A stretch of 64,000 nucleotides of DNA, from the NCBI RefSeq assembly GCF_053078305.1, contig NZ_CP166879.1. One strand, written 5' to 3'. Of this stretch, positions 37,342-50,970 are shown piece by piece. The position numbers and the translations under genes were made by a program. How positions within the stretch are numbered: the first letter of the stretch is position 1; the number at the start of each line of letters is the position of its first letter. The notes under the pieces are model-generated. The model was given only the letters and a program-made list of their open reading frames with translations, had not been told where the DNA came from and did no database searches.

Positions 37342-37920
37342 ATGTCCGGATTTAAATTTAGTAAGATATGTAAAGCCGTATGTTTATATGCAGCGGTGTC
37401 CATGCCTGCTTTTTCCGCAGATGATGGCATTGCTGTTGTCACGGATGGTGACGGTACAAATATAGCCATTGGTGATAAAGCGGATAGCAGAAAGATGAAC
37501 GGTGACAACTCGATATCAATAGGTAAATCTTCCTCTATCGGCTATGGCAATAACAGCATTGCTGTCGGGACCTCTTCCTATGTAACCAGTAGTGATGCCA
37601 TAGCCATTGGTACGAACAGTCTTGCTAGGGCAAACGGAACGATTGTTATTGGTAAAAATGCCAAATCCGGCGGTGGTCAGGGGGTAGTTATCGGTGAGAT
37701 GTCAACGCCACGATGTTTGACCTACCGTCTTATATCACTGGCGCTGACAGAGGGGGCAACTAAGTTGCCTGGCATGTTTATGACAATAAAGAGTACCGTC
37801 ATGCATCATGGCGAACAGGAAATTACAGTGCCGTCTTACCGGGGCGATCAGCGCATGGTTGTGTCGTTTACCCTGGCTCATTATTACGTGTGCAGTAAGC
37901 CCCGGATATCAGGTCACTGA
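37342..37920 (+). pseudogene. 5' fragment of a trimeric autotransporter adhesin gene
   Basis: 37384-37699 is near-identical DNA to 49270-49585 (signal peptide end plus first head repeats of the 580-aa adhesin); similarity ends at 37700 and the ORF runs into unrelated sequence. Confidence 0.6.
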
Positions 37921-38506
37921 GTATATCTTTGAATGAGCGGTAAACCGGGGATGCGATCTGCTGCCCGGGAAAGTCGAACTGACTGGTCAATAGATATCAA
38001 TACGTGGCAGCTAGGCCGTTTACAGGTATCTGACAAGGACACCTTCTGAGCGTGCAATGTGGACGGGTAATACAACGATGGTAGCAGGCTGGTCAGAAAT
38101 CAGCAGTATATGCCCATATTTCTTGAGTCGGATATCTGTTTCCTGAGTTTGTTTTCGTCGTTTGCTAATATTTTGTCGAACTAATTATCAGAACTATTAA
38201 TGATAACAGTGTGGCAGGGATCTTTACCGATATCAACGTAAATAACGACCTTAACAGGTGCGTAATTGCTGGATTTTGCCATGCTGTTACCCTGTTGATA
38301 CGGGTTAATTAAATAACTTTGGGGAAGCAGGTACCGGCGTTCACTACCACTCTCCCTGATAATGTATCCTGCATGCCTGATAATTTTTCCGGGCTAATGT
38401 AAAATAACCCTGAAATATATTAAGTTGATTAATAGACTGGTAATGAAAAAAACAGGTATTATTTATTATATAAAATTCCGGATTCGATGCGGCTTGCGAT
38501 ATATTA

Positions 38507-38517
38507 TTTTTTTTTTT
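38507..38517. repeat. Poly(T)11 homopolymer tract upstream of the T1SS operon
   Basis: Eleven consecutive T at 38507-38517, ~460 bp upstream of the GTG start at 38976. Confidence 0.9.
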
Positions 38518-38975
38518 GCCTGTGATGGGAGCCTGAGGTTAAATTATATATAATGCAACTGGAGTTTGCAGGATAAAAAATATCAATTATGTGATATGAA
38601 GTAAGAAGTCCATCCCACTCTTTATCTACAGACCTTTCCCTTTGTTGTGATGATTTTCTATCTTGTTGGTTTATATTGTTTTTTGTTCCGGCAATCATCG
38701 ATGGTTAATCCTCCCCCGATTATATTACATTTAATTTGTTTGTTTTTAAATTTACTTTGTGAAAATTTTCTTCATAAACTGCAAGGATTGTAAGGGTTTT
38801 TCAGCTTTTCAATAAAATTGAAGTATCTCACATTTTTATTATCTTCTGTCAGTGCGGAAGATAATGGCGGTAGCTTGGATCAATTCCGGTGTCTTTGCAT
38901 TTCAATTTTACTCAATATTTTACCCGGTTGCATCATGATGCCTGATTATATTTCCCGCGTGTCCCGGAGGTTTGG

Positions 38976-48832: not shown

Positions 48833-48849
48833 TTATTTTCTGATATAAA

Positions 48850-48881
48850 TGTGGGAGAGATGTTACTCTCCCACATTTTAT
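48850..48881 (+). terminator. Rho-independent terminator after the adhesin gene
   Basis: Stem tgtgggagag/ctctcccaca, 6-nt loop, followed by TTTTA. Confidence 0.55.
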
Positions 48882-49227
48882 AAATTGAGAGATATTCCCG
48901 GGTTATGATGATGTATAAATTGATATGTGGTAAGAATCAGTAATGTTAATAATGGAATGACTGAAAGATGTAAAATACGTACACTGGGCTTATTCCACAT
49001 CTGTTTGTGGATATAACGATATAAATCCCGGTTTGTTATATTTGCCGAAAAACAAATTAAATGAAGATGTATAATGTATAAATGTGATTGTATTTTATAT
49101 ATTTATTGCTTTTTATTGTGGATGCGAGTGAATTTATAAGTGTGCTGAATCCATCTAATAATATAAAATAAAATCTGGAAATGTATTTATTATTAACAGT
49201 GATTTTTAATACATATGGTTAACTGTT

Positions 49228-50970
49228 ATGAAAATAAAACTTTCCAGTGAAATATCAAAATTAATTTTTTTATATGCAGCGGTGTCCATGCCTGCTTTTT
49301 CCGCAGATGATGGCATTGCTGTTGTCACGGATGGTGACGGTACAAATATTGCCATTGGTGATAAAGCGGATAGCAGAAAGATGAACGGTGACAACTCGAT
49401 ATCAATAGGTAAATCTTCCTCTATCGGCTATGGCAATAACAGCATTGCTGTCGGGAGCTCTTCCTATGTAACCAGTAGTGATGCCATAGCCATTGGTACG
49501 AACAGTCTTGCTAGGGCAAACGGAACGATTGTTATTGGTAAAAATGCCAAATCCGGCGGTGGTCAGGGAGTGGTTATCGGTGAGAATGCATCTCAGGGAG
49601 ACTGGCGTAAACATTTCCCCACAGAATCCACTGCTTCGGTATCCAGTACAGTCGCAGTTGGTGATAACAGCAGTGCTGCCGGCGTGGCATCCGTCGCTGT
49701 CGGCTCCGGAGCTTCTGCAACGAGGGATGGATATGGTACTGCACTGGGAGATGATGCTGAAGCCAGAGGAAAATCTTCCACTGCGGTGGGGGCACAGGCC
49801 ACTTCAGTCTCGTGGGGTTCAGTTGCACTGGGCCTTTCTTCAGCTTCCGATCGTGTAGCCGGAGTGTCTGCATATATGCCGGAGACCAGAAGTAATAACG
49901 CAGAAGAGGTGGTAATATCCCGGATGGATGAAGCGCAGCGAAACAGGCTTGCTGAGATAGATAAACAAATTGCGCACTATAAAGAAATCGTGGACCCGCT
50001 GGCTGATGCGTATTTTTCTCTCAGTAATGAGCTTGATAAAAGATATAGTGAGCTGGAAGATTCTGAATTAAGTGGCGTGGAGTATGCTGAAAAGAGAGCA
50101 GAAATTGATAAATACCGGACTGAGAGCAAACTGACAGATAAATCCCGGGCATATTATGGATCCCCTGAATATGCTGCGCTGAATAAACTGCAGGCAGAAC
50201 GCTCAAGAATCTTTTCTGCATATGTTTCCACTCATGGTGCTGTATCTGTGGGGAATGGGAAGAGCATCACAAGGCAGATCACAAGTGTTGCCGCGGGTTC
50301 GGAGGACACTGATGCCGTTAACGTTGCACAGCTCAGGGATTTGCAGACTGTGACAGAAAAGGCGGATGCAGCGCTTGATAAACGCATAACAAACAACACC
50401 AGTGCGATAACTAAAAATCTGCAGGTGGTTAACAGTAATAAAGAGGAAATCAGTAACATTAATAAAACGACAAAAATTCTGGATGAAAGAGTGACAGCCA
50501 ATACACAGACAGCAGAAGAACATAAGCTGCTTATTTCGGAGAACAGCAAACAAATCAGTACCAACGCTCTTGGTATCAGAGAGAATACACAACGGATCCG
50601 GGATGAGGGGCAGGCACGAATCCGGGGAGACAGGGAAACCCTGCGTGCAGCGACCGGTTATACCGACATGCGGGTAAACGGGCTGGAGCGTAATACGAAT
50701 AAACGTTTTGCGCAGCTTAAAGAGGATATAGACAAAAACAGAAAACGTGCAGATGCAGGTATTGCTGGTGCGATGGCAATGACGGGGATACCGTCCGTAC
50801 CCGGGAAAAAGGTCTCATTTGGTATGGCCATGGCCGGATACCGGAGTGAAGGTGCTGTTGCTGCCGGCTTCCATTTTAATACAAGTGAAAACAGTGCTGT
50901 TAAAGTGAATGCCGCCTGGGACAGTGAAAGTGGAGTGGGCGTTTCAGCCGGGATGGCTCTGGGATGGTAA
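49228..50970 (+). CDS. Trimeric autotransporter adhesin (YadA-like)
   Basis: 580 aa; signal peptide, YadA-head repeats (SIAIG, SIAVG, AIAIG), coiled-coil stalk, C-terminal anchor (…GIAGAMAMTGIP…SFGMAMAGYRSEGAVAAGFHFN…). Confidence 0.8.
   Translation: MKIKLSSEISKLIFLYAAVSMPAFSADDGIAVVTDGDGTNIAIGDKADSRKMNGDNSISIGKSSSIGYGNNSIAVGSSSYVTSSDAIAIGTNSLARANGTIVIGKNAKSGGGQGVVIGENASQGDWRKHFPTESTASVSSTVAVGDNSSAAGVASVAVGSGASATRDGYGTALGDDAEARGKSSTAVGAQATSVSWGSVALGLSSASDRVAGVSAYMPETRSNNAEEVVISRMDEAQRNRLAEIDKQIAHYKEIVDPLADAYFSLSNELDKRYSELEDSELSGVEYAEKRAEIDKYRTESKLTDKSRAYYGSPEYAALNKLQAERSRIFSAYVSTHGAVSVGNGKSITRQITSVAAGSEDTDAVNVAQLRDLQTVTEKADAALDKRITNNTSAITKNLQVVNSNKEEISNINKTTKILDERVTANTQTAEEHKLLISENSKQISTNALGIRENTQRIRDEGQARIRGDRETLRAATGYTDMRVNGLERNTNKRFAQLKEDIDKNRKRADAGIAGAMAMTGIPSVPGKKVSFGMAMAGYRSEGAVAAGFHFNTSENSAVKVNAAWDSESGVGVSAGMALGW

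Follow-up and report, generated by a model that had tools for sequence, protein, structure and literature searches.

A 316-bp repeat around a tos-type secretion operon of Escherichia coli: probable gene conversion between a trimeric autotransporter gene and a truncated paralogue

Introduction

How does a type I secretion operon come to lie between two near-identical stretches of an adhesin gene? The question is raised by a 64,000-nucleotide stretch of Escherichia coli DNA (contig NZ_CP166879.1 of assembly GCF_053078305.1), analysed whole and referred to here as the window, in which the 5' region of TAA580, a gene for a YadA-like trimeric autotransporter (TAA) of 580 residues, recurs upstream of the operon in a short gene fragment. 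A preliminary description of the window saw in this arrangement the footprint of a recombination or insertion event, and suggested that the repeats could mediate excision of the operon. We argue here that the left fragment is probably the decayed stub of a separate, paralogous gene, designated TAA-L, which has been made near-identical to the right copy by gene conversion from TAA580. The 316-bp repeat has no function of its own.

Results and discussion

The repeat is shared by two different genes

The two copies align without a gap over 316 bp with four mismatches (98.7% identity), which fall at repeat positions 81, 188, 300 and 303 and leave perfect blocks of 80, 106, 111, 2 and 13 bp; a repeat finder (family D3) gives their spacing as 11,886 bp. 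Because identity collapses to 35-43% in the 40 nucleotides outside each edge, both edges are sharp. The similarity is far above chance, and an assembly artefact is excluded by STEC639 and four independent complete chromosomes of E. coli, all of which have both copies with the same junctions. The preliminary description had thus placed the near-identical copies and their spacing correctly, and the anatomy of the region bears out its reading of a truncated 5' fragment on the left and an intact gene beginning on the right:

37384..37699, plus strand: left copy of the 316-bp direct repeat, a putative converted tract with TAA580-type sequence
49270..49585, plus strand: right copy of the 316-bp direct repeat
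37342..37699, plus strand: TAA-L pseudogene stub of 119 codons, comprising start codon, signal peptide and first YadA-head repeats (NCBIfam, alignments)
49228..50970, plus strand: TAA580, an intact 580-residue YadA-like trimeric autotransporter (NCBIfam, structure matches)
36846..37341, plus strand: AT-rich, TAA-L-specific upstream region, unrelated to the DNA upstream of TAA580 (alignments)
36666..36845, minus strand: internal fragment of an IS110-family transposase gene, corresponding roughly to residues 135-209 of the ISEc20 transposase (tblastn and blastn against ISEc20; IS, insertion sequence)

Head, stalk and C-terminal anchor are all present in TAA580, as expected of a TAA: the YadA model covers residues 337-580, the YadA anchor structure 2lme matches residues 492-580, and stalk and neck structures match residues 315-402. 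The exact protein also occurs in public E. coli assemblies. The left open reading frame (ORF; 37342-37920) encodes 192 residues, of which residues 22-131 are matched by NCBIfam TAA models (E 1.5e-5 to 1.9e-4), and its product is labelled 'YadA-like head domain-containing protein' in one source. Codons 1-119 are TAA sequence, and the remainder to 37920 is read-through of unrelated DNA, made up of a scrap of a colicin gene and an IS110 remnant. As the TAA sequence stops at codon 119 (position 37699), with neither the coiled-coil stalk nor the C-terminal YadA membrane anchor that TAA function requires, the left fragment is a pseudogene. Its protein cluster has 28 members, seen on 1 to 155 contigs each, and none exceeds 192 residues.

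Alignment shows that the start codons and signal-peptide N-regions of the two copies differ, and that their upstream DNA is unrelated. The stub begins with MSGFKFSKICKAVCLYAAVSMPAFSA, followed by YadA-head repeats, and its signal peptide reads MSGFKFSKICKAVC-LYAAVSMPAFSA; that of TAA580 reads MKIKLSSEISKLIF-LYAAVSMPAFSA. Both N-regions are 14 codons long and have four residues in common (M1, S7, I9 and K11). Thus, with start codons, N-regions and upstream DNA of their own, the left and right copies represent two genes, not one gene that has been split.

The DNA upstream of the stub also contains a DUF1187 gene and IS66 debris. Consensus promoter-like sites were the only signals detected in the AT-rich region (36846-37341). 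A 46-nucleotide stretch of this region (37061-37106) is 72% similar to one upstream of the first gene of the operon, a tosC-like gene (38705-38750), with the core CCCCGAWTATATTACATTT; the likeness may be due to chance or may mark a shared regulatory site.

A longer TAA-L gene in other genomes

The protein cluster of TAA580 includes two members with the left-type N-terminus (P0160 and P0167; 416 residues each). Their genes lie on draft E. coli contigs, L012 (GCA_013054805.1) and L015 (GCA_013055665.1), which share the DUF1187 gene and the upstream context with the window, at 88.7% and 95.0% identity respectively, up to exactly position 37699. Past this point the gene in L012 and L015 runs on as a TAA sequence 93-94% identical to TAA580, and comprises at least 416 codons. 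Since the left-type gene is longer in these genomes, behind matching upstream DNA, the left copy in the window is the stub of a separate paralogue. The IS110 fragment at 36666-36845 is also found upstream of the longer gene in both contigs, and forms part of the ancestral DNA in front of the left TAA gene. The two longer alleles are mutually distinct and stop at the same residue at the contig end, which suggests that repeated downstream stalk sequence in these genomes breaks short-read assemblies. They were found among the members of clusters built at 90% identity; clustering at 50% identity merges the left and right types. An exhaustive search of cluster representatives returned only right-type or distant TAAs and no longer TAA-L, and a word-index protein search with the 119-residue stub as query returned three truncated proteins only, missing even TAA580.

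It could be argued that no such paralogue was ever involved, and that the first ~316 bp of TAA580 were recently moved upstream by an IS event and happened to fall in frame with an unrelated ATG. The very high identity of the copies (98.7%) and the IS remnants on both sides of the left fragment fit a partial duplication of this kind. So does the rarity of the left-type 5' end, which occurs in 4 of 5,426 complete genomes; a 43-mer that is specific to this end, and conserved in both lineages described below, was absent from metagenome contigs and GTDB genome contigs. In L012 and L015, however, the left upstream DNA and N-terminus are followed by TAA-L-specific sequence in a gene that spans at least 416 codons, and the left N-region resembles the signal peptide of TAA580 in length and in four common residues. 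The retention of TAA-L-type states at sites 188 and 300 of the repeat (see below) also tells against a recent duplication, which we regard as improbable.

The stub joins TAA-L-type DNA to TAA580-type sequence

Over 1036 aligned bases, the DNA upstream of the stub differs between the window and L015 at 29 (97.2% identity). The 316-bp tract of the stub, by contrast, is 92.4% identical to L015 (24 mismatches) and 98.7% identical to TAA580 (Fisher p = 3.7e-4), its identity to the longer TAA-L alleles ranging from 90.5 to 92.4%. At some 20 diagnostic sites every truncated left copy has the TAA580 state. Site 300 has retained the TAA-L state in every stub, and site 188 has done so in one lineage (A, below). 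Judged by its sequence, the stub combines the upstream DNA of TAA-L with head sequence of TAA580 type, and the switch from one type to the other coincides exactly with the start of homology between the paralogues. Such a chimera, with its switch at the homology edge, bears the signature of gene conversion, from TAA580 into TAA-L.

The genomes compared fall into lineage A (the window, Z1323MEC0001 and STEC639) and lineage B (JNEC-KY175, SMBL and SI-NP020). At sites 191, 243 and 244 the left and right copies have the same state within a lineage and a different state between lineages, with the exception of the left copy of Z1323MEC0001 (L001), which has the lineage-B state at site 243; site 300 alone distinguishes all left from all right copies. 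Within a genome the two copies differ at 4 of 316 positions, compared with 6-9 of 316 between the orthologous left copies of lineages A and B, whose unique flanks differ by 1.8-3.3%. The shared lineage-specific states indicate that the copies kept exchanging sequence after the arrangement arose. Both hallmarks of conversion between paralogues are therefore present: paralogues are closer to each other than orthologues are, and the tract is bounded by the end of homology.

In this the locus resembles the concerted evolution of paralogous surface-protein genes, truncated pseudogenes included, in which paralogues within a genome are likewise closer than orthologues between genomes, and in which chimeric tracts likewise end with the homology and lineage-specific substitutions are shared. 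In silent-cassette systems, such as the transfer from pilS to pilE in Neisseria, conversion generates antigenic diversity. The flow in the window, in contrast, is from an expressed gene into a dead 5' stub over 316 bp only, and no antigenic diversity is generated.

The left junction and the distribution of the operon

The DNA that follows the stub consists of two pieces:

37700..37749: 50-bp scrap that matches 29 E. coli plasmids at the 5' end of a gene annotated 'colicin Ia central receptor-binding domain'
37750..38512 (end at 38512 extrapolated), minus strand: internally deleted IS110-like remnant, 76-79% identical to ISEc20

The remnant keeps only residues 1-88 and 362-396 of the transposase. 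Its outer end (~37750) was set by the ends of ISEc20 at an empty site, by alignment and by the junction in STEC1585, where the same remnant adjoins subAB, with the junction at 37749, as it also does in SCU-171. The segment 37700-37749 was considered as part of the IS110-like element, which would have implied direct insertion of the IS into TAA-L. This was ruled out by the position of the IS end, and is also contradicted by the plasmid matches to the colicin Ia-domain gene, which are independent of any other window sequence. The stub thus sits in IS-riddled mosaic DNA, and this points to an illegitimate junction at the truncation point.

These details bear on the proposal that the operon inserted into a single TAA gene, duplicating 316 bp in the process, so that the copies would be the halves of one gene. 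The repeat does bracket the operon exactly, with a 5' fragment on the left and the 5' end of a gene on the right. The left breakpoint, however, runs from the TAA stub to the colicin scrap and then to the IS110-like remnant, with no operon DNA directly after 37699. Insertion typically duplicates 2-14 bp of target beside an element with defined ends; the repeat here is 316 bp long, a target duplication that no known insertion mechanism makes, and is followed by scrap DNA. The right copy, moreover, has its own complete 5' end and different upstream DNA, and the longer TAA-L gene exists separately.

The distribution of the unit, which is present in 8 of the 5,426 complete E. coli genomes, weighs against insertion as well. 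Both copies and the identical left junction are found in four of these eight, as well as in STEC639. STEC1590, STEC1589 and IBS28 lack the left copy but possess both operon and TAA580; upstream of their operon lie ireA, an unrelated TAA gene of 1443 residues, an OmpA-like gene and an IS3 remnant. SCU-171, one of the eight, has a separate TAA580-like fragment that is cut by ISEc8 and IS1. In STEC1585 and CFT073 the operon occurs without any TAA gene, the order in STEC1585 being subAB, IS110 remnant, operon and then capsule genes. An operon elsewhere without the repeat, which the preliminary description had itself named as evidence against its reading, is thus seen in STEC1590, STEC1589, IBS28, STEC1585 and CFT073. 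We consider insertion of the operon into an adhesin gene highly improbable; what survives of the proposed footprint is recombination, in the form of gene conversion between the copies.

In STEC1590 and IBS28 the ireA, 1443-residue YadA-like and OmpA-family genes (L003:3780-8909) occupy the position that the TAA-L stub has in the window, and constitute a third kind of mosaic. The 1443-residue gene was considered as the source of the stub and ruled out, its N-terminus and DNA being unrelated.

A model for the origin of the stub

The explanation that we favour, conversion of a truncated TAA-L by TAA580, can be set out as a series of proposed steps. TAA-L is a separate paralogous TAA gene; its neighbour is the DUF1187 gene, and the surrounding segment, part of a mosaic E. 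coli pathogenicity island, contains ibrAB. An illegitimate, IS-associated rearrangement may have cut the gene after codon 119, and the same event would have joined it to the 50-bp colicin scrap and the IS110-like remnant upstream of the tos-type operon, a position in which the remnant is found in several lineages. Non-reciprocal homologous recombination, that is, gene conversion from TAA580 to the stub, would have replaced TAA-L-type by TAA580-type sequence, with a tract extending to the point in the signal peptide where the paralogue homology ends, and additional conversion would have followed in individual lineages.

It should be emphasized, however, that several points weigh against this explanation. 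The polarity of the conversion rests on two longer TAA-L alleles, both on draft contigs that end inside the gene, short of a full-length TAA-L. The sample is small: the truncated and right copies come from two lineages and vary at 12 sites. An earlier allelic exchange, and not intragenomic conversion, may already have given the window's ancestor a TAA580-like TAA-L allele. Finally, the anatomy of the region, the paralogue itself, the chimeric pattern and the distribution among genomes are observed directly, but we infer the mechanism and timing of the truncation, its order relative to the conversion, and the capacity for deletion discussed below.

The locus represents ordinary decay in a mosaic E. 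coli pathogenicity island, accompanied by sequence exchange among adhesin paralogues, and leaves the current view of island evolution unchanged. Its main value is as a caution for annotation and assembly: the 192-residue ORF is a pseudogene that should not be counted as an adhesin, and a near-identical 316-bp repeat with copies 12 kb apart can mislead short-read assemblies of this virulence locus.

Deletion of the operon is possible in principle

In principle, RecA-dependent recombination between the copies could delete the 11.9-kb interval. A tract of 316 bp with 98.7% identity and perfect blocks of 80-111 bp should suffice for the homology needs of recombination in E. coli. In a modelled crossover between the copies 11,886 bp are lost and an in-frame hybrid gene is formed; such a deletion would take out the tosCBDA-like genes together with the IS remnant, fusing the promoter and N-terminus of TAA-L to TAA580, and, if real, would cost the cell a candidate system for adhesin secretion. 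None of the 5,426 complete genomes has a full-length gene behind the left upstream DNA, and neither modelled hybrid protein occurs in a collection of 15 billion proteins, as judged by an exact look-up from which a difference of one residue would hide a product. The earlier suggestion that the repeats could mediate excision of the operon therefore holds in principle, with no deletion product in either the genomes or the protein collection. As in other direct-repeat-mediated, RecA-dependent deletions the repeats are direct and dispersed, here 316 bp long and 11.9 kb apart; in contrast to those systems, neither a deletion product nor a circle has been observed for the window, and the activity is potential only.

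A direct repeat around a virulence operon is also reminiscent of att-flanked islands and composite transposons. Unlike these, the window has neither an integrase nor a functional transposase in or beside the interval (among the window genes, no integrase was found between or beside the repeats), its repeat is coding sequence of two paralogues, and its IS copies are decayed fragments. The operon, furthermore, occurs elsewhere without the left or without both repeats, which is not the behaviour of a site-specific excisable island.

It is conceivable that the stub is kept by selection as a recombination switch, in which low-frequency deletion or conversion turns the tos-type adhesin off and places TAA580 under the promoter and signal peptide of TAA-L. 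This would amount to adhesin phase variation, changing which adhesin the cell displays. The copies do recombine, the ATG of the stub is intact in lineage A, and deletion would yield an in-frame hybrid gene. The failure to find deletion products or modelled hybrids, however, speaks against such a role, as do the direction of conversion, which runs into the dead copy, and the rarity of the arrangement, which lies amid IS debris. In lineage B, moreover, the stub has lost its start codon (ATG to ATA) and carries a 1-nucleotide frameshifting deletion, and the start codon of TAA580 has changed from ATG to AGG. This decay of both partners argues against selection for a switch, to which we attach very little likelihood. 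The lineage-B TAA580 is annotated as a protein of 560 residues that lacks the signal-peptide N-region (L003:22860-22895; L005:3620-3680), and both TAA genes appear, from these lesions, to be decaying in that lineage.

The bracketed genes resemble the tos operon

The type I secretion operon lies wholly between the two copies, as had been proposed, its TolC, ABC, HlyD and adhesin genes occupying 38976-48832; two regulator genes of tos type lie further downstream:

38976..40244, plus strand: TolC-family outer-membrane component, tosC-like (NCBIfam TIGR01844; 88% DNA identity to CFT073)
40249..42396, plus strand: type I secretion ABC permease/ATPase, tosB-like, LssB-type (TIGR03375, 891 bits against a cut-off of 693)
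42441..43703, plus strand: HlyD-family periplasmic adaptor, tosD-like (TIGR01843, 322 bits against a cut-off of 209)
43988..48832, plus strand: 1614-residue repeat adhesin, tosA-like (72% amino acid identity to CFT073 TosA, full length)
55418..56533, plus strand: two LuxR-type regulator genes, tosE-like and tosF-like, closing the tos-type locus

The product of 38976-40244 scores below the cut-off of TIGR01844, though it is clearly related to TolC proteins. At the DNA level the tolC-, ABC- and HlyD-like genes match those of CFT073 at 88-94% identity, and the gene order tosCBDA is kept, collinear with CFT073. On homology and gene order, the bracketed genes can be assigned to a diverged tos-type operon. 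The tos operon of CFT073 (tosRCBDAEF) likewise has TolC-like, ABC, HlyD and repeat-adhesin genes in the order tosCBDA with a LuxR-type pair downstream; the products of the pair in the window (55418-55894 and 56018-56533) have 37% and 42% amino acid identity to CFT073 TosE and TosF. The two loci differ at both ends. CFT073 has tosR, a regulator gene of the PapB family, upstream of tosC, whereas the window has the IS110-like remnant upstream of the tosC-like gene; no ORF of at least 80 codons that might represent tosR was found in 37920-38976, in which no search was aimed at PapB-like ORFs. Between the remnant (to ~38512) and the operon, relatives annotate only a hypothetical protein of 66 residues. 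Downstream, the tosA-like and tosEF-like genes of the window are separated by two YadA-like genes and an IS66 element; CFT073 does not show this placing of two YadA-like genes.

Within the adhesin gene, units of 1002 bp recur in tandem almost perfectly (44471-46795; 10 mismatches in 1323 compared positions). They were measured by a script, as Tandem Repeats Finder remained blank because the period exceeds its limit. Among related strains the adhesin is 1614, 2285, 2616, 3291, 3625 or 4631 residues long, a spread which suggests that repeat units are often gained and lost.

The same type I secretion system, with the IS110 remnant, has been published as the 'OEP-locus' of subAB2-2 Shiga toxin-producing E. 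coli, the TolC-like component of the window being its 'OEP' (PMC3852854). In STEC1585 and SCU-171 this locus lies beside subAB; unlike these OEP-locus strains, the window has no subAB. The tos-type 'OEP-locus' thus occupies several mosaics: its neighbour may be subAB, a TAA stub, or ireA together with a large TAA gene.

Features downstream of TAA580

Two further features lie between TAA580 and the regulator genes:

51175..53706, plus strand: complete IS66-family element (tnpA, tnpB, tnpC) between TAA580 and TAA421 (NCBIfam, empty-site comparison)
53756..55021, plus strand: TAA421, a second YadA-like gene, outside the repeat and ~25% identical to TAA580

The IS66-family element is flanked by a normal duplication of ~9 bp, and its site is empty in Z1323MEC0001. 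Lineage-B relatives have, in place of this element, ISEc20 downstream of TAA421.

The window also contains two ibrA/ibrB-like pairs, each encoding a PAPS-reductase-like and a ParB/IbrB-like protein (32989-34837 and 57848-61918). The ibrA-like gene of the upstream pair is split by a frameshift (32989-33417 and 33414-34214), and an ibrBA-like pair lies upstream of TAA-L in L012 too. IbrAB regulate the Eib trimeric autotransporters in other E. coli, and by analogy a regulatory link between the ibrAB-like pairs and the TAA genes of the window is conceivable.

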